Below, in pieces: positions 328 to 54,764 of a stretch of 64,000 bases of DNA (position 1 is the stretch's first letter; each line of letters begins with the position of its first letter). The position numbers and the translations under genes are program-made. The notes beneath the pieces are model-generated. The model had not been told where the DNA came from. It ran no database searches and saw nothing but the letters and a program-made list of their open reading frames with translations. Source of the stretch: a virus; the IMG/VR virus record IMGVR_UViG_3300037264_007554, positions 1 to 64,000 of that record. One strand, written 5' to 3'.

Positions 328-630
328 CTATCGTCCGTTCAAAACTACGCAGCGTCTGGGTACGAAGCTGTCGGCGCTCTGCTGCAGCTTGAAGACGGCT
401 CGGGCCCGGGACTTCAGAGAGGCTTGTTCCCGTGGCGACAGCCCTCGACGCTGTAGCTGCGCATCTTCATGCGTGCCTGTCCCGCGCCGCCAGAGCTTCG
501 ATGCGTCTTCACAGCGTCCGAGTCTCGCCAGGATCTCCGCGAAGTCGAGCAGCTTGTAGGCTTCGGTGTAGATCTTCGCGACCTGTTCGACTTCGTTCGC
601 AGAGCCGAAGCCACGACGGCGCCGCCTCAT
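328..630 (-). CDS. Small basic protein with N-terminal poly-Arg (MRRRRRGFGS)
   Basis: ATG overlaps the stop of the upstream gene. Confidence 0.7.
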   Translation of the reverse strand: MRRRRRGFGSANEVEQVAKIYTEAYKLLDFAEILARLGRCEDASKLWRRGTGTHEDAQLQRRGLSPREQASLKSRARAVFKLQQSADSFVPRRCVVLNGR

Positions 631-1796
631 AGAATCGTCACGAACGGCCCGTGGAACCATCCAGCCATCGGCGCCATGCCGGGCTGTTTCCGCAAGACTG
701 CCAGAAGCTCCGGGTCAGACGTGTAACTGTTGACTTCCCGCAAGGCCGCATTGAAAGCTGCGGTCAATCTTTGGTCTACTTGAGCGACCGTGTATACGGC
801 CCAGGGATTCGGGCTGTTCAGGGCATCCAGCGGCGGCACGGCTGCTTCACCGGGCGCGAATGAGCTGGCTCTTGTGAACGGCACCGAGATCAGCGCGAGC
901 GCCTGCGACTGGGCGAGAGGATAGTTCTTTTTTCTGAATTCGTTGATCGCGTAATTGATGGCGCCATTCCACGCGGCCGCGATCAACTTCGCTATCGTGG
1001 GATCCAAAATCGTCGTGACCGTCGGCGTTTTCTTGGGGGCAGTAGGTGGATAAGGTAACGGCGCGATCACGACCGGCCGCGGTGGCGTCACGACCGGCCG
1101 AGGGGGCGGCGGTGGCGGCGGTGGCGGTGGCGGCGGAGGCGGCACCGGCCGTGGGGGTAGCGGGAGCGGCCGGGGCGGAGGTGGCGGGGGCGGGGGCGGC
1201 TCTTGCGCTTTGGCTTGTGCAGCGGCGACCTGTGCGGCGCGGGCGGCGTCAGCCTGGCGCTGCGCTTCGGCCGCGGCCTGGGCAGCTTCGGCGGCAGCTC
1301 GGTTGGCTTCGTCACGCGCCCTCGCGGCGTCGGCTTGCTGTTTTGCGGCGGCGGCTTGCCGGGCTTCGGCCTGGGCGGTTGCGAGATCAGCGGCTGCGCG
1401 CGCTCGGGCCGCGGCTTCTCGGAGTGCGGCCGCGGCCGCGGCGGTTCTTGCCTGAGCGGCGGCCGCTTCGGCGTCGGCTGCGGCCCTTCGTGCGGCAGCG
1501 GCTTGAGCCGTGGCCAGAGCGGCGTTGGCCGCGTTCGAGGCGGCCGCGCGCGCGTTGGCGTCGGCGTTGATCAGGGCCGCGCGCTCGCGGCCAGCAGCAG
1601 CGTTGGCGGCGGCCATCGCATCTCCGGCGCGCTTGCCCGCGGCGTCTGCTTCACCTTTGTATCGCTCGGCGTCAGACTTGGAGGCTGCCAGGGCTTTGCG
1701 GACCCCCCAGAACAGTCCGGCAACCAAGCCGACGGCGCCGACGCTGAAGGCTACTTTCGCACCGGTGCGGGAGTCGTTTTGCCTGTAGCGGGGCAC
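627..1796 (-). CDS. Membrane-anchored Ala-rich coiled-coil/Pro-rich protein, putative virion protein
   Basis: N-terminal TM helix, long Ala-rich helix, poly-Pro hinge; GTG start 7 nt after a promoter -10. Confidence 0.7.
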   Translation of the reverse strand: MPRYRQNDSRTGAKVAFSVGAVGLVAGLFWGVRKALAASKSDAERYKGEADAAGKRAGDAMAAANAAAGRERAALINADANARAAASNAANAALATAQAAAARRAAADAEAAAAQARTAAAAAALREAAARARAAADLATAQAEARQAAAAKQQADAARARDEANRAAAEAAQAAAEAQRQADAARAAQVAAAQAKAQEPPPPPPPPPRPLPLPPRPVPPPPPPPPPPPPPPRPVVTPPRPVVIAPLPYPPTAPKKTPTVTTILDPTIAKLIAAAWNGAINYAINEFRKKNYPLAQSQALALISVPFTRASSFAPGEAAVPPLDALNSPNPWAVYTVAQVDQRLTAAFNAALREVNSYTSDPELLAVLRKQPGMAPMAGWFHGPFVTIL

Positions 1797-1842
1797 GGAC
1801 GGCAGGATCGCACGGAGGGGAAGGCTGGCGCAAATTGCGTTT

Positions 1843-2130
1843 TTAGCGACGCCTGCGCCGACGGCGGCGCGCACCGCCCAGAAGCGCGGAGGAAGGACTC
1901 ACGCGGCCGGAGGCTTTGCGCTTCCGGCCTTTCTCGTAGCACTCACCGGTGAAGGTGTCGTGGTAGGGAGTGCCTCTCTCGACGGTCGCGATGCAAACCG
2001 TCCGGCCTACACCGATGCCGGGGGAGGAAATCAGGGTGGCGAGATTGCGGATTTCGCGCAAGGTGCCGGAGCGCGTCGCCTGCTGCATGTTGTCCTTGTA
2101 GACACCGTGGTAGCTCTTTTTGAAAGCCAT
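1843..2130 (-). CDS. Small basic protein ending LLGGARRRRRRR
   Basis: Leaderless promoter TTGCGT-N18-CAGAAT-N6-ATG. Confidence 0.7.
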   Translation of the reverse strand: MAFKKSYHGVYKDNMQQATRSGTLREIRNLATLISSPGIGVGRTVCIATVERGTPYHDTFTGECYEKGRKRKASGRVSPSSALLGGARRRRRRRR

Positions 2131-2201
2131 GCCTGCATTCTGCCCGAGAGCCCGGCCCAGACGCAAATTGCAACGGATCACGGCAGGAGTATGCTGGGAG
2201 C

Positions 2202-2420
2202 ATGATTTTCGGCAGACCGATTCGTCCCCGTCCAGGGCCCCGGCCGCGACTTTTTCGGCCGCACGCGCGAGGCTTCGGCCCGCGCTACGTCCAGACCACG
2301 TACATCCCCGAGTACATCCCGGCCGCGATCTCGGCGTGCGTGCCGGACACGGCGACTCGGCTGCCGCCGTGCTCGGGGGTGTGGGTTCGCCGCGGCAACG
2401 CTTTCTGCTGCGAGGGGTGA
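2202..2420 (+). CDS. Small Arg/Pro/Cys-rich protein
   Basis: Leaderless promoter TTGCAA-N16-TATGCT-N6-ATG; coupled to next gene. Confidence 0.6.
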   Translation: MIFGRPIRPRPGPRPRLFRPHARGFGPRYVQTTYIPEYIPAAISACVPDTATRLPPCSGVWVRRGNAFCCEG

Positions 2421-2635
2421 TGAAAAAGCGCGGTTACAAAGTCTGTTGGACATTCACGTCGTTTGTTCGCCAGACGTGTCGAACCTTGTCGGCGAAGCAA
2501 CACCGCAATGCGCGTGAGGCAGCGGAGACCGTTCTTATGCAGAATCCCGGCGCTGTTGTACGGGTGGTGAGCCCAGGCCGTGGCGGTCGCGGCAGCCGTT
2601 GGCGACTCAAGGGTTTGAGGGCGGTGCGGATTTGA
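2420..2635 (+). CDS. Small basic hypothetical protein
   Basis: TGATG coupling, MKKRGYKVCW... Confidence 0.6.
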   Translation: MKKRGYKVCWTFTSFVRQTCRTLSAKQHRNAREAAETVLMQNPGAVVRVVSPGRGGRGSRWRLKGLRAVRI

Positions 2636-2637
2636 AA

Positions 2638-4990: not shown

Positions 4991-5185
4991 GTGAGTCAAC
5001 TTCCGCCCGAGTTGCTCGCGGCGCTCCGGCATCCGGACGTCCAGCTCGAATGTGAGCGCGACGTCATGAAGGCGCTGCGCCGGTTCATCTTCACGCCGGA
5101 TGCGGTTCTACCGTTCGATCAGTTCAACTGGATGCAGGCGCAATCGAATACGCCGGGGTCGAACACGCCGGGGTCGAACACATGA
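4991..5185 (+). CDS. Hypothetical protein
   Basis: GGAGG RBS before GTG; C-terminal SNTPG repeats. Confidence 0.55.
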   Translation: MSQLPPELLAALRHPDVQLECERDVMKALRRFIFTPDAVLPFDQFNWMQAQSNTPGSNTPGSNT

Positions 5186-5400
5186 AGCGCCGCCGACGTA
5201 AAGCTGCCTTGGGGCGTACACGCGAATCCGACATCGTGTACGAGAACACGGCGTGCTGGGTCCGGCGTGATCGGAGCGCCTACACGGTTTTCAGGATTGG
5301 CCTCACCCACAGTACATCGGACAGTGCCTACAAAAAGACCACGGATGGCTTGTCGATCGCAGTGGCGCGCTGCAAATACCTAAATCGTCCTCGGAGTTAA
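5182..5400 (+). CDS. Small phage protein with N-terminal MKRRRRKAALG extension
   Basis: Coupled ORF; body (THSTSDSAY...DGLSIAVARC) resembles a small phage protein family. Confidence 0.7.
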   Translation: MKRRRRKAALGRTRESDIVYENTACWVRRDRSAYTVFRIGLTHSTSDSAYKKTTDGLSIAVARCKYLNRPRS

Positions 5401-7284: not shown

Positions 7285-7833
7285 ATGGAGACCGTTGTGA
7301 AGCGCGGTTTCCTTCGTACCGTTGGCAAGTTCGCCGCCTACTCCGGCGTGGCCGTCGCTGGGCTCATCGGCACCCGTTACCTCGCGGACATCGCGGCCCG
7401 CGGGATCAAGACCTCACTCCCGCTTTTCCCGACGTTATTCGGGACGTGGGCCATCGCGGCCTGGGCCACTGCCAAATGGGGCGGCCCGTTCGCGACAGCC
7501 CTGACGGTCGGCTCGGGGATCGCCGTCATCGACGAAGGTCTGACGTATGTTCTCCCGGCCGTCGGCTTGGGACCGAAGCGATCGGTTCCACGGCCGGGTG
7601 TTCTTGGTGCGTGCCCAGAGCAGTACGTCGCCGGACAGTTCCCCAGGCCGAGTTTGTTCCGTCCGGCTGCGCGCGACGCCTGCGACATGAACTTCTGGCG
7701 CGGCCGCTGGGTCGGGTGTCAGATCGGCGGCCCGAAGGGCTTGAAGACCCGACGGTGGTGCCACGATTCGTACTGGGGGCAGCAGTGCTGCCCAGCCGGG
7801 TCGAAGAACGTGGGGATGGACGAGTGGCCTTAA
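7285..7833 (+). CDS. Multi-TM membrane protein with Cys-rich C-terminus
   Basis: Three hydrophobic segments, then VLGA and a Cys-rich tail. Confidence 0.65.
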   Translation: METVVKRGFLRTVGKFAAYSGVAVAGLIGTRYLADIAARGIKTSLPLFPTLFGTWAIAAWATAKWGGPFATALTVGSGIAVIDEGLTYVLPAVGLGPKRSVPRPGVLGACPEQYVAGQFPRPSLFRPAARDACDMNFWRGRWVGCQIGGPKGLKTRRWCHDSYWGQQCCPAGSKNVGMDEWP

Positions 7834-8243
7834 CGACGACGGCGCCCAGCGAGGGACGGTGGTGCGGGGCAAGAAAGAATGTAGTAGTCGCCTGTGTCCT
7901 CGGTCTCGGGAACAGCGCGGGCGCGACCTTTCGCTGCCTGTTTGCGCCAGAAGCTATCAGCTTCGGGAGAACGAGTTTCATCCGAAGCCAAAGGTAGGTT
8001 GTACTTTTTGCAACTGAGTTTGGCAGCAGCTTCGTAGAGTCGTGTCGCGACGCCGCGTTTGCGGTATTCGGGCTCAACAAAAATACGGCTGATTTGCATG
8101 GCAGGGTGAGCGAGCGCCTCCTGCCTCGCGTCCGAGACGACGTAGCGAGTGACGCCTACGTAGCCTACTTGTTGACCCGAGATTCGAGCACTGAGGCGGA
8201 ACCAGTCGCGCGCGTGCTTTTTTCCTTCTCGAACGATCTTCAT
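7830..8243 (-). CDS. GNAT-family acetyltransferase with C-terminal LAGRRRR
   Basis: IFVEPEYRKRGVATRLYE acetyl-CoA motif A. Confidence 0.8.
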   Translation of the reverse strand: MKIVREGKKHARDWFRLSARISGQQVGYVGVTRYVVSDARQEALAHPAMQISRIFVEPEYRKRGVATRLYEAAAKLSCKKYNLPLASDETRSPEADSFWRKQAAKGRARAVPETEDTGDYYILSCPAPPSLAGRRRR

Positions 8244-8623
8244 CGCTTCCGCTCCTCCGGCGTCCACGGCCCGTGTCTCCCGATCCGGCAGGATGTAATC
8301 AAGGCCCGCTCCGGCGTGAAGCGCTGGACGCTCTTCGGCCGCGCGACCTTGTAGAAGTCTGCGGCCGGGATGCTCATGTTGCGCAGCTCTGCGTGCTGGT
8401 AGTCGTACACGCGGCCTGAGTGCTCAATCCAGGCGTGGGCGATCCGGCGTTGCGGCCGGGCCGCGTCGATGATCCGTGCATGCACGACGGTCGCGTCGTC
8501 GCCGAAGCGCTTCAAGGCCAAGTTCGCGTAGGGAAAGCACAGGCCGGAGGGCCCGCCTTGCACGCTCGGGTAGCGGCTCTGCCACTCTCTCAGGGCTGTC
8601 TTCGTGAAGAAACGCGCCCTCAT
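8240..8623 (-). CDS. Papain/transglutaminase-like small cysteine hydrolase
   Basis: GLCFPYA...HAWIE...VYD Cys-His-Asp pattern. Confidence 0.6.
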   Translation of the reverse strand: MRARFFTKTALREWQSRYPSVQGGPSGLCFPYANLALKRFGDDATVVHARIIDAARPQRRIAHAWIEHSGRVYDYQHAELRNMSIPAADFYKVARPKSVQRFTPERALITSCRIGRHGPWTPEERKR

Positions 8624-8811
8624 TTCCGTAGGCACCGGTCGCTGAAAGCAGCCTTCGCCCTGACCAGCGTCTCGTGGATCTGAAAACGGGCCCGTTGATC
8701 GTAGCGGGCCTTCGCCGCGTCTACGTTCAAAGAAATGAGGCGCGTGAGCGCGCTTTCGCACCGCTCGTCTGTGCGGGCGTTGCCCAGGCCGGTGCGGCGG
8801 CGTTTCTTCAC
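8620..8811 (-). CDS. Small basic protein (MKKRRRTGLG...)
   Basis: Coupled between neighbours. Confidence 0.6.
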   Translation of the reverse strand: MKKRRRTGLGNARTDERCESALTRLISLNVDAAKARYDQRARFQIHETLVRAKAAFSDRCLRK

Positions 8812-17780: not shown

Positions 17781-18574
17781 TGACGTACGAGCGCCTGGAT
17801 CTTATCAGAAGGCTTGCGCGGTATCGCGAACGCTCTGGACGACGCCAGGTCTACCAAATGGGTTCCAGATTGCCGCTGGCGAATCTCTCGGATGAGATAT
17901 CGGAAACCGAGTTTCATGTGCAAACGGCTGTGGAGAAGAGCTGTTTCGATACGATGCTTGATCACAAGGGCAATAATTTTGCGAAAGCTACAAAGTATGG
18001 AGCAGCCATTATTGGGGATCCCTACGAGGAAATTAGTACAGAGGAACGTCGCAAAAAGCACGAAGCCGGGAAGCAGCGCATGCGACAAGTCGCTCTACGT
18101 ACAAATAAACAACGCGAACATAAACGTCTGGCAAAACTTCGGCGCGCAGTCAGCGAGCCAGTTAGCGAGCCAGTGCCCAGGTCAGTCGGGCTTTTCTCCT
18201 TCGCTTCCCGGCTCTGGTTACCACTCGGAGATGTTCGCCCAGGCGCATTCGGTAGCCTCATCCACGTTCCGGCCGAGATTCAAAAAAGGATGAATCCAGC
18301 GATGGACACGTACATCGACGGTTTCCGTGGTCAGTTTCGTTCGATTGGACTACTCCAAAGCGAGGTCGTGCCTGTCCCGCTTCACGACGACGTGTATCCG
18401 AAACTGATCGTAGCTGCGCAGTTGTACTCCAAGATCATGGGACAGGCGTTGACGATCGAAGATCCGCAAACGCTGTATGCGACTGCACGCGCGAGTATCG
18501 GAAGCCTCTCAGGCTTCTTCCGTGCGTTCGTTATTCTACCTATCGCAGAGGCTGCGATGAAAGGAACCGAATGA
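17777..18574 (+). CDS. Hypothetical protein
   Basis: 265-aa coupled ORF. Confidence 0.6.
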   Translation: MMTYERLDLIRRLARYRERSGRRQVYQMGSRLPLANLSDEISETEFHVQTAVEKSCFDTMLDHKGNNFAKATKYGAAIIGDPYEEISTEERRKKHEAGKQRMRQVALRTNKQREHKRLAKLRRAVSEPVSEPVPRSVGLFSFASRLWLPLGDVRPGAFGSLIHVPAEIQKRMNPAMDTYIDGFRGQFRSIGLLQSEVVPVPLHDDVYPKLIVAAQLYSKIMGQALTIEDPQTLYATARASIGSLSGFFRAFVILPIAEAAMKGTE

Positions 18575-18909
18575 AAAAGCGCAAGCCCCCGAAGCTCGTC
18601 GCTCAGGTCGGCGAGACCGTCATCGTCGTCGACTCCGGCTTCGAGTTCAACCTCCGGCCGGACAGTTATCTATCGACGAAGATCCGGTGGTGGCAGGTCC
18701 GGTTCGGTGATCAGCGGCCCTGGCTGCTCGCGTTCTCGGAAGACCGGGTCGACCTGTTCCGGCGCGGACTGCGGCTGCTGCTGGCGCAGCTCGACGAGAA
18801 GTGGCCGGAGCGACCGAGGCCGGAGTACGCCGGATTTGAATGGGGCACTCCGGCCGCGGCGATGGCGGCCCGGAAGCGGCTGGCCCGGAAAGGAAGGAGA
18901 GGAAAATGA
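18571..18909 (+). CDS. Hypothetical protein
   Basis: Coupled. Confidence 0.6.
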   Translation: MKKRKPPKLVAQVGETVIVVDSGFEFNLRPDSYLSTKIRWWQVRFGDQRPWLLAFSEDRVDLFRRGLRLLLAQLDEKWPERPRPEYAGFEWGTPAAAMAARKRLARKGRRGK

Positions 18910-19196
18910 TACTGGCGCTCTTCGTGCTTTCGGGTGCGGTCGTGCTGCTGCTGGGATGGGGGTACAACGACGCCCGGCTCATCCGCCAGTTATTTCAGCG
19001 GATCGAGCGCATGGAAGCGATCGTGGCCGACGCGCGCCCGGATTTACTCGCGGCGGTGCCTAAGCCGCAGGCCGCGTTGCCCGCGGCGTCCAGGTTTTGT
19101 GGAATCCCGCACTGCATCGGGGCTGCTTCTCCCATCTGCCCGGCACTGTCCTGCGCGAAGTGCTGCCGGAAGTACTGCCCGGTGCATGACAAATAA
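18906..19196 (+). CDS. Small TM protein with Cys-rich C-terminus
   Basis: MILALFVLSG..., multiple Cys/His. Confidence 0.55.
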   Translation: MILALFVLSGAVVLLLGWGYNDARLIRQLFQRIERMEAIVADARPDLLAAVPKPQAALPAASRFCGIPHCIGAASPICPALSCAKCCRKYCPVHDK

Positions 19197-32565: not shown

Positions 32566-32718
32566 TTAGCGGCCGCAGTTGCAGTCGCGCTTCCGGCGCA
32601 AGGGTGCCCCAGCCATTCTCTGCGGGTTTTTCTTCCCGCTCGACGCCGCAAGGCCGATGGCGGCCGCCAGACCTCCCAGGATCCCGACAGCGACAACGGC
32701 CTTGCCGGTATTCGACAT
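32566..32718 (-). CDS. Small TM protein with basic tail (MAGAPLRRKR)
   Basis: Single TM, 50 aa. Confidence 0.6.
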   Translation of the reverse strand: MSNTGKAVVAVGILGGLAAAIGLAASSGKKNPQRMAGAPLRRKRDCNCGR

Positions 32719-32771
32719 CGGCGCGGATTCCGTCGCACCAAAATTTTCTCTCCGTCTCAGAAACATACAGG

Positions 32772-34714: not shown

Positions 34715-35347
34715 CTATACCAGAGCCGACGCCCGAACCAAATTAGCGTCCCAGGCAGGGAGAGAAGCCAGATAGGGCTGCCCTGTCAGCTTGTCTATGA
34801 ACAGGCTTGGGTCGCGGCCTTGTTCCACAGCGCTGCTGGCCTGGACACCGCGGTACTGCAGGCGCAAGAGCCTCTCCAGGGGGACTTTTGACGGCCGCTT
34901 TTCCAACGCCCTGCGAACTCTATCGTACACCCCCCGCAAGATCTTTGTACCCCACTCGATGTTGATGTCCGGCTCGAACAGCATCGTCCGCGTGACACCC
35001 GCGGCCGCCAACGCCGGTCCGTGTGCCTTGGTGTTGATCTGCATCAGCCCAATCGACGCACCTTCCGGGAGCACGTGGTAGTCGCCCACACACGTCGGGT
35101 TGCCGCTGGACTCCGCCAAGATGGTCGCGACCACCCACTTCGCCGGAAGGCCCCGTGCGGCTGCCCATTTTCGCGCCAGGTTGATGATCTCGGGCGTGAG
35201 CTTGCGGGGCTTGCAATAGCCGCTTCGCGCCCTGGCGGCCGCCGCAGGCGTCGCCAGCATAAGCAGCAAGCCGAGCGCTGCAGCAGCCGCGATAATAGGA
35301 ACGGCTACCCGCGTTGCACGTGCAGGCCGCCGCGTACGCCGCCGCAT
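34715..35347 (-). CDS. Membrane-anchored lytic transglycosylase (SLT domain)
   Basis: AESSGNP, IGLMQIN, PDINIEWG; N-terminal Arg run and TM. Confidence 0.88.
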   Translation of the reverse strand: MRRRTRRPARATRVAVPIIAAAAALGLLLMLATPAAAARARSGYCKPRKLTPEIINLARKWAAARGLPAKWVVATILAESSGNPTCVGDYHVLPEGASIGLMQINTKAHGPALAAAGVTRTMLFEPDINIEWGTKILRGVYDRVRRALEKRPSKVPLERLLRLQYRGVQASSAVEQGRDPSLFIDKLTGQPYLASLPAWDANLVRASALV

Positions 35348-35349: not shown

Positions 35350-35808
35350 TTACACCCGACGCTCTCGGTCGCCGATGAGGATGGGAGCGATCTGCACACG
35401 CAACGGCAGCCAGGTTGGCGCGTCCGTCACAGCGTAGAGAGGCTGGTTGCCGGGAAGCACGATCTGGTAGGGCAAAAAAGCAGGAAGCGCATGGCCGTTG
35501 CTCACGCGCACACCTGCGTTCCCGACGAAAATCGAGAACCCGACGAACGGTGCAGAGAGCGTGATCAGACGCGACGCGCGTCCGGCCGGAACGATGAGCG
35601 TCGGCTCGACTCCGCTTCCGGCGAGCGCAGACTCAGGAATCACCTGCGCAGAAAAGAGATCTGTAGGAGGAGGTGCACCGGTCTCCGACCCGAGAACTTC
35701 GGCATTCGCCTGGCCGGGAATGCCGTTAGATGTCGAGCCAAGAGACTCGGCGCCCGGGTTCCCGAACGACCGCTCTCCCAGGATTTGCGCAACAGATCGC
35801 GGCGCCAT
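35350..35808 (-). CDS. Beta-rich putative minor capsid protein
   Basis: Structural operon; C-terminal beta-sandwich-like pattern. Confidence 0.5.
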   Translation of the reverse strand: MAPRSVAQILGERSFGNPGAESLGSTSNGIPGQANAEVLGSETGAPPPTDLFSAQVIPESALAGSGVEPTLIVPAGRASRLITLSAPFVGFSIFVGNAGVRVSNGHALPAFLPYQIVLPGNQPLYAVTDAPTWLPLRVQIAPILIGDRERRV

Positions 35809-36430: not shown

Positions 36431-37192
36431 CTAGGTGACCGGACGCTTGACCAACCCTTCGAGGGTCTCGCGGACGTCGAAGCCCAGCGACGTCGCGGGC
36501 AGGCCGGTCCAGTCGGCGTAGCCCTGGATGAACGTCGGGCCCGCGCCCAGAGCGAGGCCGAGCGCCGCCTGCGGCCGCAGCTTCGCGGTGTACCCGATGT
36601 TCGGGCGCAACCAGATCGGGAGCACGAACGCCCCCTGATCACGCGGGGAGGGCGGACCGTTGTTCGCCACTTCCTGCGAGGTGTTCGTGGTGAACACGTG
36701 GATGCCCGACCCCTGGGGGTATTCCTCGATCGGCCCCTCGGACTGCACCTTCTGGTTCACAGTGAACTTGTGGAAGGTCTTCCGCATGAAGTCGAACAAC
36801 ACACCACCCGACGTGACGGCCGGATCGTAGCCGCCGACGCGAGTCGCGCGCGACAACTGCACCCCCGCCGTGTCCTGCAGCGCGAACGCTGCCACACCGG
36901 CCGCCGAGCCCATCTCGCGGACGATCTCGATCTGGATGCTGTAGATCAGCATCTCCCAGCCCTGCTGGAGCCCGTTGTCACCCGAACGCGAGATGTTGGT
37001 GTCCACCTCGGTCAAGATGCGGGAGCCGCCGGGGATCGGCGAACCGATGCCGCCGATGAAGGCGATGATCTCTTGCGAGTCATTGCCCTGGAACTCCACG
37101 GTGTGGAAGAGACGATCGTGCGTCCAGTCCGCGAACTGGATTGCGAACGGTACGCCTCGAACTCGAACTGTCAGTGTGCCCGTGTCAGCCAT
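36431..37192 (-). CDS. Putative major capsid protein (253 aa, jelly-roll type)
   Basis: Strong codon bias, A-rich RBS, structured 5' leader, own terminator, beta-rich sequence, surrounded by membrane/core genes. Confidence 0.6.
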   Translation of the reverse strand: MADTGTLTVRVRGVPFAIQFADWTHDRLFHTVEFQGNDSQEIIAFIGGIGSPIPGGSRILTEVDTNISRSGDNGLQQGWEMLIYSIQIEIVREMGSAAGVAAFALQDTAGVQLSRATRVGGYDPAVTSGGVLFDFMRKTFHKFTVNQKVQSEGPIEEYPQGSGIHVFTTNTSQEVANNGPPSPRDQGAFVLPIWLRPNIGYTAKLRPQAALGLALGAGPTFIQGYADWTGLPATSLGFDVRETLEGLVKRPVT

Positions 37193-37319: not shown

Positions 37320-37817
37320 CTAGGACAGGAAGTTCGAGCCGAAGGCGCCGAGCAGCTCGACATCGGGGACGCCACCGGCGCCACTCATGTCTTGCTCGGG
37401 GACCACGGTCCCGAACATGCCGGTCGAGCCCGAGCCCGAATCCAGCAACTGCACGTCACCCGCCGGGACACCGGTGTTGGCACCGAAGTACCCCGCCAGC
37501 TCCTGCTCGGGCGTGATCACGCCGAGGTAGCCCTGCATCGGGCCACCCATGACCATGTCCTCGATCTGGCGGGGGATACCCACCAGCGCGGCCGTCGCCA
37601 GGCCCTGGATGCCCATGCGCCGGTAGCGCGGCGAGAACATCAGTCCCGCCGAGATCCCGCCGCCGAGCAACGTGCCGATCAGGCCCGCCCACTTGGTGAT
37701 GGGTTTGCCCTTGAAGAGCATTTTGGTCGCCAGCATGCCCACCTGAGCAGCGCCGCCGCCGATCAGCGGACCTGCCAGGTCTTCGCCGACTCCCTCGAAA
37801 TCTCCGAAGTCATCCAT
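37320..37817 (-). CDS. Gly-rich membrane protein with repeated G-x-[LF]-G motifs
   Basis: TM segments; GYLG, GYFG, GMFG, GAFG. Confidence 0.75.
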   Translation of the reverse strand: MDDFGDFEGVGEDLAGPLIGGGAAQVGMLATKMLFKGKPITKWAGLIGTLLGGGISAGLMFSPRYRRMGIQGLATAALVGIPRQIEDMVMGGPMQGYLGVITPEQELAGYFGANTGVPAGDVQLLDSGSGSTGMFGTVVPEQDMSGAGGVPDVELLGAFGSNFLS

Positions 37818-37877: not shown

Positions 37878-37967
37878 CTAGCGGCGAGCGCGCTTGTTCT
37901 TCAGGCACTGGCCCTTGCGGCGGCCGCGCTTCACGATTCCGAACTTGCAGTGTCGCTTCCTTGCCAT
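37878..37967 (-). CDS. 29-aa Arg/Lys-rich peptide (putative DNA-condensing core protein)
   Basis: MARKRHCKFGIVKRGRRKGQCLKNKRARR; GAGGAG RBS; below the ORF-track cutoff. Confidence 0.7.
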   Translation of the reverse strand: MARKRHCKFGIVKRGRRKGQCLKNKRARR

Positions 37968-39136: not shown

Positions 39137-40867
39137 TTACGCGGTTCTGAGACGCCGACGTGGCGCCGATCGGTATCCACTCTGCGACTTTTTTCCGCGG
39201 AACGCAAAATAGCCGATCGTTCCGAGACCGATCACGCCCACACCGGCGGCGATGTAGTGCCAGACCGGACGCTTCCCTTGTACTGCTTGCGTGGCTGCCT
39301 GCGCCTGTTCCACCTGCGCCGCAGCCGCCTGCGTCTCCTGCGTCGCCTGCGCGACTGCTTCTTTCGCTTGTGCTTCCTGTGCAGGTGTTGTCGCCTGCGC
39401 TGCAGCAGCCTGCGCTACAGCCTGCGCAGCCAGTGCCCGATCCATCTGTGCCTGTGCCGCTGCTTCCTGGGCCTTCGCCGCCGCTACCGCCTCCGCCTCC
39501 GCCCGTGCCTGCGCGGCCGCGGCCGCAGCCTGCTCTGCTGTGGGCAACTGCTCCGCGGGAACCGCCGGTGTCTGAGCAGGTGTCGTGGCCGTGGCCGCCA
39601 CGATCTGATCGGGCTCCGGAGAAGGCTTCGGAACTTCCGTCACCTGTGTCGGAGTCTCACCACACTCTGCAATCCTTGCCGCGAGGTTGTTCGCAATACT
39701 TTCAGCCTTGGCCGACACCTGCGCGATCGAGTACCCGGGGCTCAGACCGGTGTGAGGTAGCTTGGAACAGGGCCCCACGTCACTCAACGCTCTGTTCACG
39801 GCCGCCGTCGTCTTCGGACCGTTGATCCCGTCAACGGGAACAGTCAGACCTGGATCTTTTGCGAGCAGTGCAAGCTGCCCGAGGCTCTGCTGGATCTGTG
39901 TGATCGCTGCCGAGCGCGAAAGCCCAGGCTTCGGAGCTGCTGCCGGGAGCTTCGGCGGTTTCACACCGAGTTGTGCCAGATGTGCTTCGACGATCTTCGC
40001 AATGCTCTCCGCATTCATCACGATGTCGGACTGGCTCAACATGCCCGTACGAAACTGCGAAGGCGCAGTCGCGATGCTCGCCAACGCTCTGTTGACGGCG
40101 GTCGCCGTCTTCGGTCCGATCAAGCCGTCGGCACCGATCTGCAAGACCTTGTCGCCGAGCTTTTTGCCGAGCGCTGCGATTGCCTGCTGCAACCGCTGCA
40201 CGGTCGGCGACTTGGTAGGCTTGGACGGAGCCGGAGCCACCGGCTTCGTCACTATCGAAGCCTTCGCATTGGCCTCGCTCGTGATCGAAGTGACGATGTT
40301 CGGGTTCGTCAGATCCGCGGCCGTCACCTGACGCGAGTACACGCCATAAGACGACACGGCCTTGTTCACGGCCGCGACCGTCTTCGGACCGACAGCACCA
40401 TCGGCCGCAATCATCAAGGTCTTGTCCCCGATCTTGCTGCCGAGCGAACGCAACGCATTTTGCATCGCCTGCACCTGAGAGCGACTCGCGCCTGCGGCCG
40501 GTCTCTTCGGCGCGACGGCCGGTGCAGCGGCTCGCGGAGCCGTTGTCGTGAGCAACTGTTTCGACCCAGGAGCGCTCCGGCTCGCGGCAGCCGATTCGAT
40601 CGCGCTCGAAAGAGGAGCTGCATTTTGCGAGACGTTCAACGGCGTGAGTTTGCCGGTACGCAGACTGGCGGGCGCCGTCGTCACGTACTTCGTCATCGCG
40701 CGATTCACGGCCGCCGCGGTCGCGGGCCCTGTGATCCCGTCGGCGTTGACCGCGAGAGCGGTATCGTTGACTGCAAAACCGAGAAGCGCGAGAGCGCGTT
40801 GCAAACGCGCGACGGCTGGCGAAGAGGCAGCGCCGAAACCGTAACCCATGAAGTGCTGGGACAACAT
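39137..40867 (-). CDS. Four PG-binding-like repeats + Ala-rich stalk + C-terminal TM anchor
   Basis: Four LQ..L..LG...DG..GP.T..AVN.A repeats. Confidence 0.8.
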   Translation of the reverse strand: MLSQHFMGYGFGAASSPAVARLQRALALLGFAVNDTALAVNADGITGPATAAAVNRAMTKYVTTAPASLRTGKLTPLNVSQNAAPLSSAIESAAASRSAPGSKQLLTTTAPRAAAPAVAPKRPAAGASRSQVQAMQNALRSLGSKIGDKTLMIAADGAVGPKTVAAVNKAVSSYGVYSRQVTAADLTNPNIVTSITSEANAKASIVTKPVAPAPSKPTKSPTVQRLQQAIAALGKKLGDKVLQIGADGLIGPKTATAVNRALASIATAPSQFRTGMLSQSDIVMNAESIAKIVEAHLAQLGVKPPKLPAAAPKPGLSRSAAITQIQQSLGQLALLAKDPGLTVPVDGINGPKTTAAVNRALSDVGPCSKLPHTGLSPGYSIAQVSAKAESIANNLAARIAECGETPTQVTEVPKPSPEPDQIVAATATTPAQTPAVPAEQLPTAEQAAAAAAQARAEAEAVAAAKAQEAAAQAQMDRALAAQAVAQAAAAQATTPAQEAQAKEAVAQATQETQAAAAQVEQAQAATQAVQGKRPVWHYIAAGVGVIGLGTIGYFAFRGKKSQSGYRSAPRRRLRTA

Positions 40868-41149: not shown

Positions 41150-41259
41150 ACCGGCGTCGACGATACAACCGCGCCCGAAAGCTGTCCACCCGGAATCGGG
41201 ATGTCAAAAGAGCCGCCACCGGGGAGAAAAAGTCTTTTCGTGCCGCCCATGTTTTTCAT
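41074..41259 (-). CDS. Small C-terminal TM protein
   Basis: MKNMGG...QLSGAVV...TM; coupled to the protease gene. Confidence 0.6.
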   Translation of the reverse strand: MKNMGGTKRLFLPGGGSFDIPIPGGQLSGAVVSSTPVWIPVLGGLLLGGLTIWGISRLIRN

Positions 41260-41771
41260 TCCTTCGCCGCTGCGAAATCTTGGTACTTGGCCCGAGGAGG
41301 CTCGGCAGCGAACCGGCCGAGCCCGAGTGTGGTGTCGAGTGCAATCCAGCGCCTCGGCGCATGCTTCGGCACCCCCGCCATGCAGTAGATGTGATCCCAC
41401 GACGCGCCGGTGTTCGACGTGATCCGCCACTTCGCTTGAAAACCATTCTCCATCGCAAGCACAGCATTCAAAATTGACGCATCGTCACAATCACCTCCGC
41501 CAAACTGCAACGTCCGCAGCGCCGACTGAAAAGTGTCCTTGAAAGTGATGTCGCCGGTGTACCGCACGTTCTTCGTGACGAACTCAAAGATCGATCGCAG
41601 CTCACACACGTCGTCTCGGGCTGGACACTGGCGCGTCGCAAGCAGTCCGATCTGGCGCATTAACGGGTCGCGTAGTCCACCGTCCGCCAGCATCACGAGC
41701 CTGCGCAAATGCTTCACGCGATCTTCGAGGCTTCTGCCTACCTCGTGAGCTTGCAGAGTCGGGTTCGACAC
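41256..41771 (-). CDS. Transglutaminase-like cysteine protease (candidate virion maturation protease)
   Basis: VRY..D, GDCDD, HIY, W.ALD catalytic triad pattern. Confidence 0.85.
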   Translation of the reverse strand: MSNPTLQAHEVGRSLEDRVKHLRRLVMLADGGLRDPLMRQIGLLATRQCPARDDVCELRSIFEFVTKNVRYTGDITFKDTFQSALRTLQFGGGDCDDASILNAVLAMENGFQAKWRITSNTGASWDHIYCMAGVPKHAPRRWIALDTTLGLGRFAAEPPRAKYQDFAAAKE

Positions 41772-46215: not shown

Positions 46216-47085
46216 CTAGGCCGCGAGCGCGGCTGCCACCACACTCCCCGCCAGCCCTTCGATCCGGGTCTGGATCTCGGGCAGCTTGACGCCCAGGAGC
46301 GTCTCGTACGACCGGATCTTGTCGAGCAGCTTCTCGCAGCGGACCTTGCGGCTCGCCAGTGCCCGGTCACCGATGCCGCTCTCCTCGGTCCGCGCGGCCA
46401 GCTCGGCCTCGATCTCTTCGGCCGCGTCGCGCGCCTCGCGTGTGATCGAGTCTAAGATCGCCTCGACCGCTTCGTCGCAGTGCAGAGCCGGGATACGGAA
46501 CACCCGGTGCTCACCTGCGGCCTGGATCGCGCGGGCGACCTGCTCCCAGAACGCGACGTTCGGCCGGGGCACGAAGTAGATCCCGCCCGAATCCCGCAGG
46601 CTCGTGGCGGCCTTGCCGTCGGCCAGCTTGACCAACCACCCGCCGATGTCCGTCGAAGCGAGCGTCACGCGCGCCGCACGGAAAGCGGCCTGAATCTCGT
46701 TCGAGATCTTGGACGTCTCGACCGAGAGGGTGTTGATGTCCGTGCGGATGATCTGATACCCGACGTCCCAGCGCGCACGGATCAACTCCGTGGTGTTGAC
46801 GTGCCCGTCCTTCGTGTCGACCTCGACGAGACCCCACCCGCCGTTGAAATCGCCGCCCTTGATCTTGAACGCCTTCCGATTCGCGGATTCCTGGGAGACG
46901 ACCGCGCGACGGATCGCGACTTCGGCCGATGGCTCGCTCGGCAGCAGCGCCGCGTCGAGGCCCTCCGCCTGCCACGCCTGAGTTAGTTTCGCGAGCGTGG
47001 TGTCCCCCGACAGGCGCCAGTAGCTGATCGCGCCCGCGGTGTCCGTGTTGGTGACGATGAAGTTGCTGCTCTTGGTGTTGGTCAT
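46216..47085 (-). CDS. Conserved phage protein (DUF6744-like)
   Basis: GAISYWRL...GLD..LLP...RRAV...LRDSGGIYFVP; AGGAGG RBS. Confidence 0.65.
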   Translation of the reverse strand: MTNTKSSNFIVTNTDTAGAISYWRLSGDTTLAKLTQAWQAEGLDAALLPSEPSAEVAIRRAVVSQESANRKAFKIKGGDFNGGWGLVEVDTKDGHVNTTELIRARWDVGYQIIRTDINTLSVETSKISNEIQAAFRAARVTLASTDIGGWLVKLADGKAATSLRDSGGIYFVPRPNVAFWEQVARAIQAAGEHRVFRIPALHCDEAVEAILDSITREARDAAEEIEAELAARTEESGIGDRALASRKVRCEKLLDKIRSYETLLGVKLPEIQTRIEGLAGSVVAAALAA

Positions 47086-47111
47086 GTTCGTTGCCTCCTG
47101 TTTATCAGACG

Positions 47112-47125
47112 TTCTCAAATAAGAA
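47112..47125. promoter_or_regulatory. TTCTCAAATAAGAA element (copy 3)
   Basis: Intergenic, upstream of the RBS of 46216-47085. Confidence 0.6.
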
Positions 47126-47129
47126 AACT

Positions 47130-47573
47130 TCACTTTCTCAAAGAAATTTCCGCGATGATTCTTTTACGCTCCACGACGGATTTCACGGCCTTGCGCAACG
47201 GCACGAGATTGTCGATCCCGATCGTGTGCGCCCAGCCTGGGATGAACAACTCGTCGAATCTGACCCCTGTCTTGCTTTTCCCCTGCAAGCGCTTGACGGT
47301 CACGCTTTCGGCCGCGTACTTCCCGGCCAGCTTTGAATCGACACTTTCCCAGTCGCTACGAATCAACCGATTCCGACGCCCCTCCCACGTCAACCGCTCG
47401 ACGCCCTCCCGCGAGATGATCGCCGGGTACTCTGCGTCTACGACGCCCCGCAGGCCGCGCAGGGCCCCGAGCACGCGCTTACGGGCATTGCGTCGAGCGA
47501 TTGGTCGATCGGTCGTACCGTCGAGCGTACGCAGCACCCTGCGCAGTTTCTTGATGTGCTTGTCGAAGTTCAT
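47130..47573 (-). CDS. Basic hypothetical protein
   Basis: MNFDKHIKK; GGAGG RBS. Confidence 0.6.
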   Translation of the reverse strand: MNFDKHIKKLRRVLRTLDGTTDRPIARRNARKRVLGALRGLRGVVDAEYPAIISREGVERLTWEGRRNRLIRSDWESVDSKLAGKYAAESVTVKRLQGKSKTGVRFDELFIPGWAHTIGIDNLVPLRKAVKSVVERKRIIAEISLRK

Positions 47574-48865
47574 GCTGCCTCCACTTCTCGTGCGCCGTCG
47601 TCGTCGATCTCGATTCGCGTGCCCCAGGGCGCCGCGGGCCCTCCGCCGATCACACACCAGATCGTCTTGCACCACGTGGGCTCAGCGGCCGGAAAACCGT
47701 CGCCCAGGTGCCCGTCGGTCAGCACGATCACTACCTCGCAGCGCGGCCGCGCCTTTTCCAGTTCCACGAATGCGGGCGTCATGTCGGTGCCCCCGCCGCC
47801 CTTGAGTTGCGCGCACGCTGCCGCGATGTCCCGCACCCGCGCGATACCGTGCACCCGGGCATCGATCGCCACCACCGTCACCTGGGCCGCGACCGCGCGG
47901 AGCACGCCCTCGATCTCGGACGCGGCCTCGGCCAATTCTTTGTCGCCCATCGAGCCGGACGTGTCAACGACAACACCGACCTCCGGCACCGGCGCGCGGT
48001 ACGCAGGCAGCACCGGCCGCCCGACGCCGTAGCCGAACCCGGCCTGACGTCGGCTCGGGCGGCCCCAGTGCAGATCGACAGCACCCGGCCGGTAAGCGAC
48101 GGCGTCGCGCACCACACTCGCGAGCTTGGTCCGCCAATCGACCTTCGCCGGAGCGAGAAACTGATCCGCCCAGCGCGCCAGATCCCCCGGCACCGTGCCC
48201 CGGCCCTGCGTCGCCTGCACGGCCTCCGCGACGGTCCGCTTCATCCGATCTAGTTCGGCCTGGGACCGGCCGCCTCCCTCACCACCGCCCGGCTCCTCTC
48301 CCGGTGTCGGATTGCCGCAGCACGATCCGCACTGGCCGCTGCCGACACCGTTACCCTTGCCCTTGCCCTCGCCTGGCTTGCCCTGCCCGCCGCCCTGGCT
48401 CTGCTGCGGCTGCTTCTGCTTCTGCTGATCGAGCAGCCGGAAACGCTCCTCGAAAATCAGCTTCTCCGGCTGCTGCAGGGTCTCGGGGTACACCCATTCC
48501 TTCGGCAACTCGCGGCCCAGCTTTTTCGCGGCGTCGCGCAGCGATTCATTGATGCACGCGTCCTGTGCGACGTTCGCCTGCGACGCAGTCTCCCCGGTCA
48601 CGCCGAGGGCCTCGGCGCGCGTGAAGTGATCGAGCATCACGTGCATGCACTCGTGGAACAGGCCCCAAGCGACCGTCTCCGGCGTCTGCGAATCCACCCA
48701 CGCCCGGCCCCAGTACAGCACGCCGTCCTTGCTCACCGCGAGCGTGGGCACCTGAGAGGACTCACGCCGTACCAGCGTCGCGAAGACGCTTGCCAGGTAC
48801 GGCGCGATGCCCTTCTCGTCGGTGAGCCGCGTGATCGCGACGCCGAGCTTCGTCTGCGCGTCCAT
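47570..48865 (-). CDS. DUF2201-type metallopeptidase + VWA domain protein
   Basis: HECMH (HExxH); DTSGSM, GGGTD, LTDG MIDAS motifs. Confidence 0.9.
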   Translation of the reverse strand: MDAQTKLGVAITRLTDEKGIAPYLASVFATLVRRESSQVPTLAVSKDGVLYWGRAWVDSQTPETVAWGLFHECMHVMLDHFTRAEALGVTGETASQANVAQDACINESLRDAAKKLGRELPKEWVYPETLQQPEKLIFEERFRLLDQQKQKQPQQSQGGGQGKPGEGKGKGNGVGSGQCGSCCGNPTPGEEPGGGEGGGRSQAELDRMKRTVAEAVQATQGRGTVPGDLARWADQFLAPAKVDWRTKLASVVRDAVAYRPGAVDLHWGRPSRRQAGFGYGVGRPVLPAYRAPVPEVGVVVDTSGSMGDKELAEAASEIEGVLRAVAAQVTVVAIDARVHGIARVRDIAAACAQLKGGGGTDMTPAFVELEKARPRCEVVIVLTDGHLGDGFPAAEPTWCKTIWCVIGGGPAAPWGTRIEIDDDGAREVEAA

Positions 48866-48866
48866 G

Positions 48867-50036
48867 TTACTTGCCCCCCACGAGACCGGCGCCACGGAGG
48901 AGGGGTTCGAGACGCCCGAGCAGCGGCCGGGCCGCGGGCAACGACGTGAGCAACTCTTTCGTGCCGGGGAACGGCTGCGCCCGCGAGAGCACCCGCGCGG
49001 CCGGGATCGCGCAATCCGCCGCGTCGGCGATCACTTCGCCGATCGTCTGCCACAGCTTGGCCGCACGTTCACGGCGCCGCTCCGCGGTCGGAGGAGCCAC
49101 CAGCGCGGCGCACGCACCGAGCACGGCCAGCGTGCGATCCAGGCGGCGCACGTCGTGCTTCCAGTCGACTTTGCCGTCGAGGTAGTCGGCCGTGTCCGGC
49201 AGATCCGCGGTTGCGCGGAAGGTCGCCAGCTCCGAGACCCAGGCCGAGCCGACGAACGCCCCCACGAACTCGTCGGACTCCGACTCGGTCAGGCCGTGGA
49301 CCTTGCTCGCCGCCAGCGCGAGCGCGGCGTACTCGACGGAGCGGCGCGACGGCCACGCCTTACCCGGGGCACCCTGCGCTGGCTGCTTGTGCAGCAACTC
49401 GGGGCGCCTCTGGATGAAGCCCGCGACGAGACCACGGGCAGCCGCGTCGGCACCCGGCCACGCGTCCTGCACGCGCTTCTCCTCGGCGAGAGCGTCGATC
49501 GGAGTGACGTCGCCGGAGCGAAAACCGCCCAGGAAACCAGCGACCCACTCCGTCGTCGACAGGCCGTTGTACTCCAGATGACCGAACCGGTTGCGCAGCG
49601 CCGGGGCCAAATCCCAGCCTCCGGCCGCGTCCCGCACTTCGTTCGCCGCGCCGATCACCCGGGCACGCTTGCCCAGGTAGTGCGACCCGATGGTCCGGAG
49701 CTGCACAGCGCCGAGCAGCGGCGCCTGCAGCGCGGGCGGCGCCGTGTTGATCTCGTCCAGAAAAAGCAGCCCGCCGCGCTCGAACTTCTGCGCGTAATCC
49801 GGCGCCGGGTAATGCAGGAACCCGTCCTCACCGGGGATTGGTACGACCCCGAAAGCGCCCTCGCCGCGCTCGGCCGGGGACAGCCGCTCGTACTGCAGGC
49901 CGGTGCGCGCCGCGATCGACGCGAGCAGACTTGTTTTCCCCACACCCGGGGGCCCCCAGAGCAGGAGCGGCAGGCCCCAGGCCCCCTCGGGGGATGGTGT
50001 GAACAGCGCGGCGTGGATGATCTTCTCGATGCTCAT
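48867..50036 (-). CDS. MoxR/AAA_5-like ATPase
   Basis: GPPGVGKT, LFLDEIN, AAN, ALRNRF, PSRRS. Confidence 0.9.
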   Translation of the reverse strand: MSIEKIIHAALFTPSPEGAWGLPLLLWGPPGVGKTSLLASIAARTGLQYERLSPAERGEGAFGVVPIPGEDGFLHYPAPDYAQKFERGGLLFLDEINTAPPALQAPLLGAVQLRTIGSHYLGKRARVIGAANEVRDAAGGWDLAPALRNRFGHLEYNGLSTTEWVAGFLGGFRSGDVTPIDALAEEKRVQDAWPGADAAARGLVAGFIQRRPELLHKQPAQGAPGKAWPSRRSVEYAALALAASKVHGLTESESDEFVGAFVGSAWVSELATFRATADLPDTADYLDGKVDWKHDVRRLDRTLAVLGACAALVAPPTAERRRERAAKLWQTIGEVIADAADCAIPAARVLSRAQPFPGTKELLTSLPAARPLLGRLEPLLRGAGLVGGK

Positions 50037-52521: not shown

Positions 52522-52525
52522 ATAA

Positions 52526-52539
52526 TTCTCAAATAAGAA
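52526..52539. promoter_or_regulatory. TTCTCAAATAAGAA element (copy 4)
   Basis: Intergenic, identical to 47112-47125. Confidence 0.6.
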
Positions 52540-52568
52540 CGTCTCATCAAAACTGAAAGGGGCGCATC

Positions 52569-53521: not shown

Positions 53522-53901
53522 ACCTCGACGATCTTGTGGGCAAACGCTGGGCCTTTTACGGCGTGGACAACAACACGTTCCGGATTCGAGAGATCGGAAC
53601 CCGCAACACAATCACGCTCGAAGTTGTCGAAGACAAAGAGGACGGATACCGATCTTCTCTCGACAAATTGAGAACGATCGACAGCCCTGCCGAACTGAAG
53701 AAACTCATTTTCTTCAAACGCCCGGTCGTCACCTTGACTGGGCGTAGCGCCGAAAACGATGCCAACATCGTCGAGCTATACAGCGGGACAGACTTCGTCT
53801 GGCTACGCATCGGAACCGACGAGAGCGACTCCTACTACCCTACCTTCGTCTTCAGCTACAACACGCCGGAAGACGCGAGCATCGAGGCGCTGGTACGATG
53901 A
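53518..53901 (+). CDS. Conserved phage hypothetical protein
   Basis: EDGYRSSL...IGTD..D.YYPTFVF. Confidence 0.7.
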   Translation: MNLDDLVGKRWAFYGVDNNTFRIREIGTRNTITLEVVEDKEDGYRSSLDKLRTIDSPAELKKLIFFKRPVVTLTGRSAENDANIVELYSGTDFVWLRIGTDESDSYYPTFVFSYNTPEDASIEALVR

Positions 53902-54089
53902 CCTGGGACAGAGTCAACGAGCTGCTCGACGCCGGGCAAGACGCCCACGCGATCGAACTCGCGCACAACCTGGCGGCATCCTTACAGCGGCACACGGACG
54001 CCCCGCGCTTCACCCGGCTGCCAAACTACCGAGACATCGAAGTGCTCGACCGAGTGAAGGCCGCGCTGATTCGCAAGGTGCTGTCGTGA
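53898..54089 (+). CDS. Hypothetical protein
   Basis: Coupled. Confidence 0.55.
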   Translation: MTWDRVNELLDAGQDAHAIELAHNLAASLQRHTDAPRFTRLPNYRDIEVLDRVKAALIRKVLS

Positions 54090-54367
54090 GCTACATCGCG
54101 ATCCAGGTCACCGAGGAAGGCGGCGAGGAAATTCTCGGCGCGGCTCTCAGCCTCGAACTGCTACGGACGCAAGTGATCGAAGACGTGACCGCGCTCTACA
54201 TCGAGCAAGTGACGACCGACAAGGACAGAGAAGCGATCTGCGTCCTCATGGAAGAAGGGGTCGACAACCGGGTCGCCCTGCACACCGTGCTAGGGCCGGA
54301 CTTCCCGCTGCGCCTGATGCGTTTCGTGAACGACGTCCTGGCGTCGGTGAAGTTCGAGCCTGCCTAG
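54086..54367 (+). CDS. Hypothetical acidic protein
   Basis: GTGA coupling. Confidence 0.55.
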   Translation: MSYIAIQVTEEGGEEILGAALSLELLRTQVIEDVTALYIEQVTTDKDREAICVLMEEGVDNRVALHTVLGPDFPLRLMRFVNDVLASVKFEPA

Positions 54368-54537
54368 TCTCCGCTCTCTTCGCCCTCTTCACCCTCGTGC
54401 GCGTACCACCAACCCTTTTCCCAGAGCGTGTACAGATCCTTTTCCTTGTCAATCGTGTGCGGGTTGCCGTTGAGCCGTCCACCGGCCTGCGCGAAGTCGA
54501 AGCCCGCGGCGTACGGATCACCCGGAGCCTCGAACAC
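54364..54537 (-). CDS. Small Rmf/CrpP-like domain protein (start uncertain)
   Basis: YAAGF....G....NP.......WEKGW. Confidence 0.45.
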   Translation of the reverse strand: MFEAPGDPYAAGFDFAQAGGRLNGNPHTIDKEKDLYTLWEKGWWYAHEGEEGEESGD

Positions 54538-54617
54538 CCGATGACGAACGCCCCGTACACGACGGCGTCCTACCGGTCGCGGGCGCTCTGCGAGTGCGGG
54601 CACAGGTGCCACGGCGG

Positions 54618-54764
54618 CTAACGCTTGCACGCGTTGAAGCGCTTCATGCAGTGGCTGGCCTTTCGGCGGCCTCCCTTACCCCGCATGCAGTGCGAGAGGG
54701 CTTGCTTGCAGTGACCTGGAGCGGCCTTCGCCGCGCGCGCGGCGCCGGTGAGTCGTCTTGCCAT
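54618..54764 (-). CDS. 48-aa basic four-Cys protein
   Basis: MARRLTGA...APGHCKQALSHC...CMKRFNAC; leaderless promoter TTGACA-N18-TAGCCT. Confidence 0.75.
   Translation of the reverse strand: MARRLTGAARAAKAAPGHCKQALSHCMRGKGGRRKASHCMKRFNACKR

Follow-up and report, generated by a model that had tools for sequence, protein, structure and literature searches.

Why do many small and unrelated proteins of one virus begin or end with a run of arginines beside a short glycine motif, and does a transglutaminase-like enzyme of the same virus act on them? The question is raised by the first 64 kb (positions 1 to 64,000, here called the window) of the IMG/VR record IMGVR_UViG_3300037264_007554, a single contig of 95,493 bp with 61% GC that is rated 99% complete. 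According to the original prediction, the Arg tags load cargo proteins onto the genome or core, and the enzyme, encoded at 41256-41771, trims them at the Gly motifs in a maturation logic similar to that of adenovirus. We found that the tags are non-random, that roughly a dozen related genomes conserve them at the peptide level, and that they are gained and lost as modules. We hold with high confidence that they are real and selected. For their function we tentatively prefer a role as polycationic end tags that bind a polyanion, most likely the viral DNA, and keep small proteins with the genome. In the published literature we found no description of these tags or of the enzyme of this virus group.

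The tags exist in two forms. The C-terminal tag (C-tag) reads L-x-G-A-R(4-8)-stop, with a run of 4-8 Arg/Lys, and the N-terminal tag (N-tag) reads M-(A/K)-K/R-R-R-R-x(0-3)-G-[LF]-G, with a Met-proximal run of 4-6 Arg/Lys. For gene calling, a codon-usage model was trained on this genome. Among the predicted proteins of the window, terminal tracts of at least four Arg/Lys are found three times at the N-terminus and three times at the C-terminus, compared with 0.18 and 0.23 expected from residue shuffles, i.e. they are 13-17 times over-represented. All six have an [LFM]x?G motif at most six residues away, on the body side. A six-frame count over ten related genomes, which is independent of the gene calling and uses the reversed sequence and order-5 Markov sequence as controls, gives 37 C-tags (3 in the reversed and 2.2 in the Markov sequence) and 10 N-tags (1 and 3.1, respectively). 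In 100 kb of phiCbK, an unrelated phage with 66% GC, no annotated coding sequence terminates in one of the Arg tails counted in six frames.

The residues in front of the C-terminal run follow a profile in coding-like frames, with L at -4 (21/50), a small residue at -3, G at -2 (21/50) and A at -1 (18/50). No such profile precedes the tail in non-coding-like frames, and the hinge is present in 60% of the coding-like against 12% of the non-coding-like cases. The shuffle enrichment, the reversed and Markov controls and the hinge profile of the coding frames led us to reject the view that the tracts arose by GC-driven chance in doubtful open reading frames (ORFs).

The Gly motif taken by itself behaves as expected by chance. 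Its density equals the residue-shuffle expectation in every block (z=1.6 in the virion block, z=0.05 in the early block), and the clustered copies in membrane proteins, which had been read as part of the system, therefore follow from a Gly composition of 10%. The suggested comparison of virion and early proteins thus shows no enrichment of the motif in either block; it is the tagged genes that are unevenly placed, with 5 out of 14 genes at 0.3-9.6 kb and 0 out of 49 at 10-31 kb (Fisher p=2.8e-4). Tagged genes also fill a mini-protein array at 85.5-91.7 kb, outside the window and near the other end of the contig.

Is it the peptide or the underlying DNA that is kept? Conservation was mapped against nine, later ten, related IMG/VR genomes. 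When the tags are trimmed from 45 tagged proteins, the bodies fall into 36 BLAST clusters, which together with the enrichment bears out the claim that Arg tracts beside [LFM]x?G occur on unrelated proteins. The DNA of the tails is not a repeat, as the Leu, Gly, Ala and Arg codons all vary freely. Among homologs at 30-60% identity the tag is retained in about two thirds of the pairs, and there are clear losses in the rest; for example, the gene 87289-87603 of G000 has no tag while its homolog in G005 is tagged. In 21 of the 37 C-tails, CGG-AGG Arg codons form a GGAGG-like Shine-Dalgarno (SD) sequence 8-10 nucleotides before a TGATG-type junction with the next gene. Such tails resemble known coupled operons, where the SD lies in the upstream gene and stop and start overlap, but this arrangement leaves the tail length, the L-x-G-A hinge, the tails without a downstream gene and the N-tags unexplained. 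The other 16 C-tails, including both strict ones in the window, have no SD-like sequence. From the unrelated clusters, the free codon variation, the tails without SD, the retention in homologs and the gains and losses we conclude that the tag is a modular peptide element under selection, with a ribosome-binding use layered on top. The use of the Arg codons as SD in coupled operons is secondary and not the cause of the tail.

Repeats are present at both ends of the contig. Close to the start, an (AGGCGC)n / 30-nucleotide tandem repeat at 141-223 (141-216 for (AGGCGC)n) encodes poly-Arg in one frame. The last 25 nucleotides recur at 95279, 95306 and 95333, spaced by 27 nucleotides (genome positions 95279-95493). 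These end repeats may mark an assembly break at a repeat, and they may also be raw material for Arg tails.

Eight strings had been quoted as examples of tags, at 630, 1843, 5182, 7830, 8811, 32566, 32772 and 54764, and each was found at its position. Six of them are terminal tags. At 32566 six further residues follow RRKR, and in the product of 32772-33731 the F-A-G-S-R-R string lies about 50 residues from the end, so these two are not. The proteins concerned, together with two genes from the virion block, are the following.

328-630, (-) strand: ORFan of 100 residues with the N-tag M-R5-G-F-G-S, two Cys and a body isoelectric point (pI) of about 9.9; its ATG overlaps the upstream stop (ATGA).
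1843-2181, (-) strand: small basic ORFan with two Cys and the strict C-tag L-L-G-G-A-R8-stop.
5182-5400, (+) strand: basic protein of 72 residues with two Cys and an N-terminal K-R4-K followed by L-G; ATGA overlap with the upstream stop.
7830-8267, (-) strand: GNAT acetyltransferase (Pfam Acetyltransf_7, Acetyltransf_1) with the strict C-tag S-L-A-G-R4-stop.
8620-8811, (-) strand: basic ORFan of 63 residues with two Cys and the N-terminus M-K-K-R-R-R-T-G-L-G; GTG start right after the upstream stop (TAG-GTG).
32566-32766, (-) strand: protein of 66 residues with one transmembrane segment and basic tracts near both ends, no strict tag.
37320-37817, (-) strand: conserved virion-block protein; in five or six relatives the ortholog has a basic head and G-F-G at its N-terminus.
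37878-37967, (-) strand: ultra-basic mini-ORF of 29 residues with two Cys, pI 12, its own strong SD and an A-rich leader, located inside the capsid gene cluster between two virion genes.
54618-54764, (-) strand: Cys-rich basic ORF of 48 residues with the weak N-tag M-A-R-R-L-T-G-A, homologous to 35536-35718 of relative G002.

The carriers in this genome are small (29-145 residues), and their bodies are basic in themselves (pI about 10). Each of the seven in-window carriers that were checked has exactly 2 or 4 Cys. Most have no homologs even in close relatives, and no Pfam family matches 8620-8811 or the other tagged ORFans. The coding scores of the carrier ORFs are weak, yet they are the best of the six frames.

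Where homologs exist, the tag is often seen again. The only true homolog of the 328-630 product in the search of representatives (87% identity) retains R4-A-F-G. Similar N-termini are seen in relatives and, judged by motif reading, with no detectable sequence match, make up a K/R-R-R-R-G-L-G-S-S family. An alignment to homologs had been proposed for two of the carriers. The homolog of 5182-5400 in G014 (68-75% identity, tblastn) keeps the basic head and G-L-x-G, and the sole homolog of the GNAT (42% identity) ends S-L-K-G-A-K-R-R, i.e. with hinge and basic run. The GNAT gene is convergent with a gene ending at 7833; it has no downstream gene, and its tail holds no SD. No homolog of 1843-2181 was found in five relatives, and its tail has neither an SD-like sequence nor a coupled start after the stop. 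The G002 homolog of 54618-54764 carries a full N-tag.

Tags are also found in the virion block. Homologs of the mini-ORF 37878-37967, with 29-40 residues, end in L-x-G-A-R7 in G002 and G005 and in the variant L-S-G-H-R7 in G003. The mini-ORF is in frame with the next gene, 37320-37817, with one TAG and 20 open codons between them; this is probably a coincidence, because the frames differ in G001. In the 37320-37817 family the basic head has been lost in this genome and in G001. The C-terminal end of this family has a conserved L-G-x-G-F-G-x-N-F motif. N-termini of the H-F-x-G-[YF]-G or R-F-R-G-F-G type occur in the virion block at 34192, at 40867 and in the orthologs of 37320-37817.

How would such tags work? 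We propose that the Arg run attaches to a polyanion, with the viral DNA as the most likely partner, and that the hinge of small residues, placed behind the final hydrophobic residue of the body, would give a flexible joint. The tagged proteins would then remain associated with the genome, serving in the core or neutralising charge, or travelling as cargo that is delivered together with the DNA. The tag is grafted onto many unrelated, small, basic, fast-evolving proteins with two Cys and onto a few virion-block proteins, and in coupled operons the CGG-AGG codons secondarily double as the ribosome-binding site of the next gene. The basic tagged bodies (pI about 10) and the ultra-basic tagged mini-ORF (29-40 residues) in the capsid gene cluster speak for such a role. 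Several points weigh against it. We infer DNA binding and a location in the virion from charge and gene position alone. There are only 0-1 C-tags in the low-GC relatives G006, G016 and G004, which makes the tag dispensable, and it may partly track composition. The SD of the next gene in 21 of the 37 tails gives part of the signal a cause at the nucleic-acid level. Finally, should the DNA be pumped into a shell that is already built, packaging might strip the proteins bound to it.

The second part of the question concerns the enzyme, which is encoded among the virion genes. The genes that matter here are listed below.

41256-41771, (-) strand: enzyme of 171 residues with a transglutaminase core and a Cys-His-Asp triad (PF01841), candidate protease.
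36431-37192, (-) strand: candidate major capsid protein of 253 residues with a predicted jelly-roll fold (structure model with pLDDT 74, fold matches).
39137-40867, (-) strand: peptidoglycan-binding protein (PG_binding_1/3) with a C-terminal transmembrane segment, syntenic with the enzyme gene in relatives.
34715-35260, (-) strand: SLT lytic transglycosylase of the virion block.
31453-32184, (-) strand: likely endolysin with PG_binding_1 and a weak CHAP-like domain.

The predicted transglutaminase-like nature of the enzyme and its place in the structural block are both correct. It matches PF01841 (Transglut_core) with 33.8 bits, compared with a curated cut-off of 23 (E 4.5e-8), and more than 200 metagenomic homologs were found at 56-95% identity on contigs of up to about 130 kb. 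The residues C95, H127 and D146 are invariant in 26 homologs. According to the structural model (pLDDT 91.7), the protein has a papain-like transglutaminase core fold. Foldseek matches include 3isr (E 1.5e-5), 9crn, 3kd4, 4xz7 and 4u65, which is LapG. They are generic to the superfamily, comprising putative cysteine proteases, LapG, PNGase, Rad4, the CPR-C4 protease and the pseudomurein endoisopeptidases PeiP and PeiW, and the substrate can therefore not be read off them. LapG and PeiW/PeiP share the catalytic core and the triad with the enzyme, with marginal sequence similarity, as the enzyme profile searched against PDB gives marginal matches only (E 0.08-0.9). Adenain is not among the fold matches in the top list.

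The enzyme and the capsid candidate are the two best-conserved genes, and the identity of the enzyme in close relatives (62-70%) equals that of the capsid gene. It lies in conserved synteny with the peptidoglycan-binding protein, which is catalytically silent, and near the SLT transglycosylase. The protein is of a stand-alone, cytoplasmic type, with no signal peptide and no transmembrane segment found. It is basic (pI about 8.9) and shows no overall charge complementarity to the tails. In G006, a genome with 0 C-tags, the enzyme is retained at 52-55% identity, and each of the low-GC relatives G006, G016 and G004 has 0-1 C-tags; the removal of tags can therefore not be the core role of the enzyme. 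G016 shows neither the enzyme nor C-tags; however, the end of its contig falls at the gene next door, precisely at the expected place of the enzyme gene, and the absence is therefore uninformative. Co-occurrence could not decide the link between the enzyme and the tags. We read the enzyme as a separate, universally conserved function of the virion module; it could be a maturation protease or a cell-wall or other peptidase. In the tailed Caulobacter phage phiCbK, gp041 (18403-19149) is annotated as a 'putative transglutaminase-like cysteine peptidase' and is located directly beside the portal gene; enzymes of this kind close to head genes are thus found outside this lineage too.

What kind of virus carries these genes? 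It is an uncultured, probably tailless bacterial virus of 95 kb. The best fold matches of the capsid candidate are jelly-roll capsid proteins of membrane-containing tailless viruses, first HCIV-1 (Z 5.8) and then SPV1, HHIV-2, P23-77 and FLiP, all with modest Z. In the 99%-complete genome there is no Pfam match to Phage_capsid (the HK97 capsid) or to terminase (Terminase_6N); no individual search was made for the prohead-protease families. A genome of 95 kb would be very large for a bacterial virus without a tail. Matches of the genome to deposited phages and PHROGs are almost nil. Megablast of the virion block against deposited phages gave no match, a scan for close relatives with a 623-residue protein gave none either, and the virion proteins have next to no matches in PHROGs. 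The core conserved in the relatives comprises 2.9-7.3, 33.7-41.7, 46.2-50, 54.8-57.6 and 82-85.4 kb. The virion block contains many membrane proteins. A further block at 46216-50036 on the (-) strand encodes DUF6744, a DUF2201 metallopeptidase-VWA protein and a MoxR-like AAA_5 ATPase; most relatives keep it, but G001 does not have it. Only three proteins of the genome have a Walker-A motif, and this ATPase is among them. Across the whole proteome, the predicted pI has a median of about 9.

Adenovirus was the model of the original prediction. Its protease cuts at (M/I/L)XGG-X and (M/I/L)XGX-G sites, and in pVI the basic C-terminal peptide pVIc is released next to such a site (PMC4246237). The adenovirus proteins pVII, pX/mu and pVI provide Arg-rich proteins and peptides bound to DNA, and the sites have a hydrophobic P4 and a Gly at P2; the capsid candidate here has a jelly-roll fold, like that lineage in a broad sense. 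The resemblance covers the Leu and Gly of the C-tag, which would fall at P4 and P2. It fails for the N-tag, as G-[LF]-G-S does not fit the site in the same orientation. The tags here also differ in that they consist of oligo-Arg only and form the extreme ends of many accessory proteins that are unrelated to each other. Furthermore, the adenovirus protease is adenain, while the candidate here has a transglutaminase fold.

The principle of a shared terminal tag is better known from T4. The genes of the T4 internal proteins reportedly lie in variable regions. Unrelated small T4 proteins share a short N-terminal capsid targeting sequence that directs them into the head, and it is removed by the prohead protease gp21; related systems exist in giant phages (PMC9026906, PMC9958956, PMC7411985). 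A tag-and-cleave logic for cargo is therefore not new for bacterial viruses (PMC9026906, PMC9958956). Both systems place a short terminal tag on unrelated proteins (36 BLAST clusters here), but the T4 tag is not polycationic. In T4, moreover, the protease family and the HK97-type head assembly are known, while this genome offers a jelly-roll candidate and, as described above, no HK97-type capsid or terminase match. The tags are also similar, by analogy, to engineered oligo-arginine tags and to the loading peptides of encapsulins, though no HK97-type capsid match (Pfam Phage_capsid) was found here. Encapsulin cargo-loading peptides are short and C-terminal, with a hydrophobic-x-Gly-small core and a basic end, and are sufficient to load unrelated cargo.

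Which readings compete with DNA-binding end tags? The predicted one, in which cargo or core proteins reach the genome through their tags and the cysteine protease cuts these off at the Gly hinge as the virion matures, is in our judgement improbable. The tags themselves turned out to be real, modular, selected and present on at least one virion-block family, and the Leu four residues and the Gly two residues before the Arg run recall the P4/P2 positions of the adenovirus sites (PMC4246237). The Cys-His-Asp enzyme is a core virion-block gene, conserved like the capsid gene, and no C39 peptidase (PF03412), the mark of double-glycine leader systems, was found in the 99%-complete genome, where controls respond, although prohead proteases were not covered. 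Proteases of the transglutaminase fold that cut at small residues also exist: LapG, one of the fold matches, cuts at a site of the Ala-Ala-Gly type. However, the N- and C-tags are mirror images, in both of which Gly adjoins the Arg run and the hydrophobic residue is one step further in, and a protease site with one direction cannot account for both; they suit a hinge better, or a contact that does not depend on orientation. The enzyme persists in G006 where C-tags do not, has no charge complementarity to the tails, and its fold matches extend to PNGase, Rad4 and the pseudomurein endoisopeptidases. Trimming of the tags, and with it a link between enzyme and tags, is possible but unsupported. 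The more specific version is a little less probable still: within the particle of a large tailless jelly-roll virus, the enzyme would cut behind L-x-G-A and set free both the cargo and oligo-arginine counter-ions for the DNA. More credible, though still unlikely on balance, is that the enzyme is a virion-associated cell-wall peptidase for entry or lysis and has nothing to do with the tags. Its synteny with the peptidoglycan-binding protein and the nearby SLT gene would fit, as would the shared fold of the phage enzymes PeiW and PeiP. On the other hand, the genome already encodes a PG_binding and CHAP-like lysin (31453-32184) and the SLT, for a lysin an identity of 62-70%, on par with the capsid protein, is exceptional, and the protein lacks a signal peptide or transmembrane segment.

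The tails might also be a by-product with no function as peptides, where the Arg codons hold the SD of the next gene and GC-rich composition or hexamer slippage extends them. The 21 tails with a GGAGG-like sequence, the poly-Arg frame of the (AGGCGC)n repeat at 141-216 and the rarity of C-tags in the lower-GC relatives would agree with this. We give it little credence, as 16 tails have no SD and the GNAT no downstream gene. An SD accounts for two Arg codons, not for 6-8, and neither for the L(-4)/G(-2)/A(-1) profile nor for the N-tags; the residues are kept while the codons vary, and the reversed, Markov and phiCbK controls yield almost none. It is hardly likely that the tag is a signal for another process, such as acyl transfer by the enzyme (sortase- or ubiquitin-like, at L-x-G-A) that would fix proteins to the capsid or an inner membrane, or a polycationic peptide that would target membranes or cells in the host. 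Members of the enzyme family transfer acyl groups by way of a Cys thioester, a chemistry that belongs to the family while it is the fold that is seen here; the motif with its basic tail recalls sorting signals, and the virion block is rich in membrane proteins. Yet no hydrophobic segment separates motif and tail, unlike in sortase-type signals, and for this pure analogy no acceptor is known.

The novelty lies in the chemistry of the tag, the type of virus and possibly the protease family, as the principle of shared terminal tags is already known from T4 and giant phages. It is rare for a short transferable tag to bring unrelated proteins to a common destination, as the T4 capsid targeting sequence and the encapsulin loading peptides do; such tags help to explain how viruses assemble and can also be put to use as tools. 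In the present case dozens of unrelated proteins share an oligo-arginine tag whose hinge is fixed, in an uncultured lineage of viruses of roughly 80-140 kb with a jelly-roll capsid candidate and no Pfam match to the HK97 capsid or terminase. The claim can be tested directly on a handful of recombinant proteins, and a virus culture is not necessary. If the tags are cleaved, this would mean a new family of maturation proteases, and with cleavable loading tags the virus would have arrived on its own at a core maturation of the adenovirus style, by way of another protease family. Loading of proteins onto the genome by the tags would, if it occurs, reveal how such viruses offset the charge of their DNA or deliver early effectors, for example the tagged GNAT.

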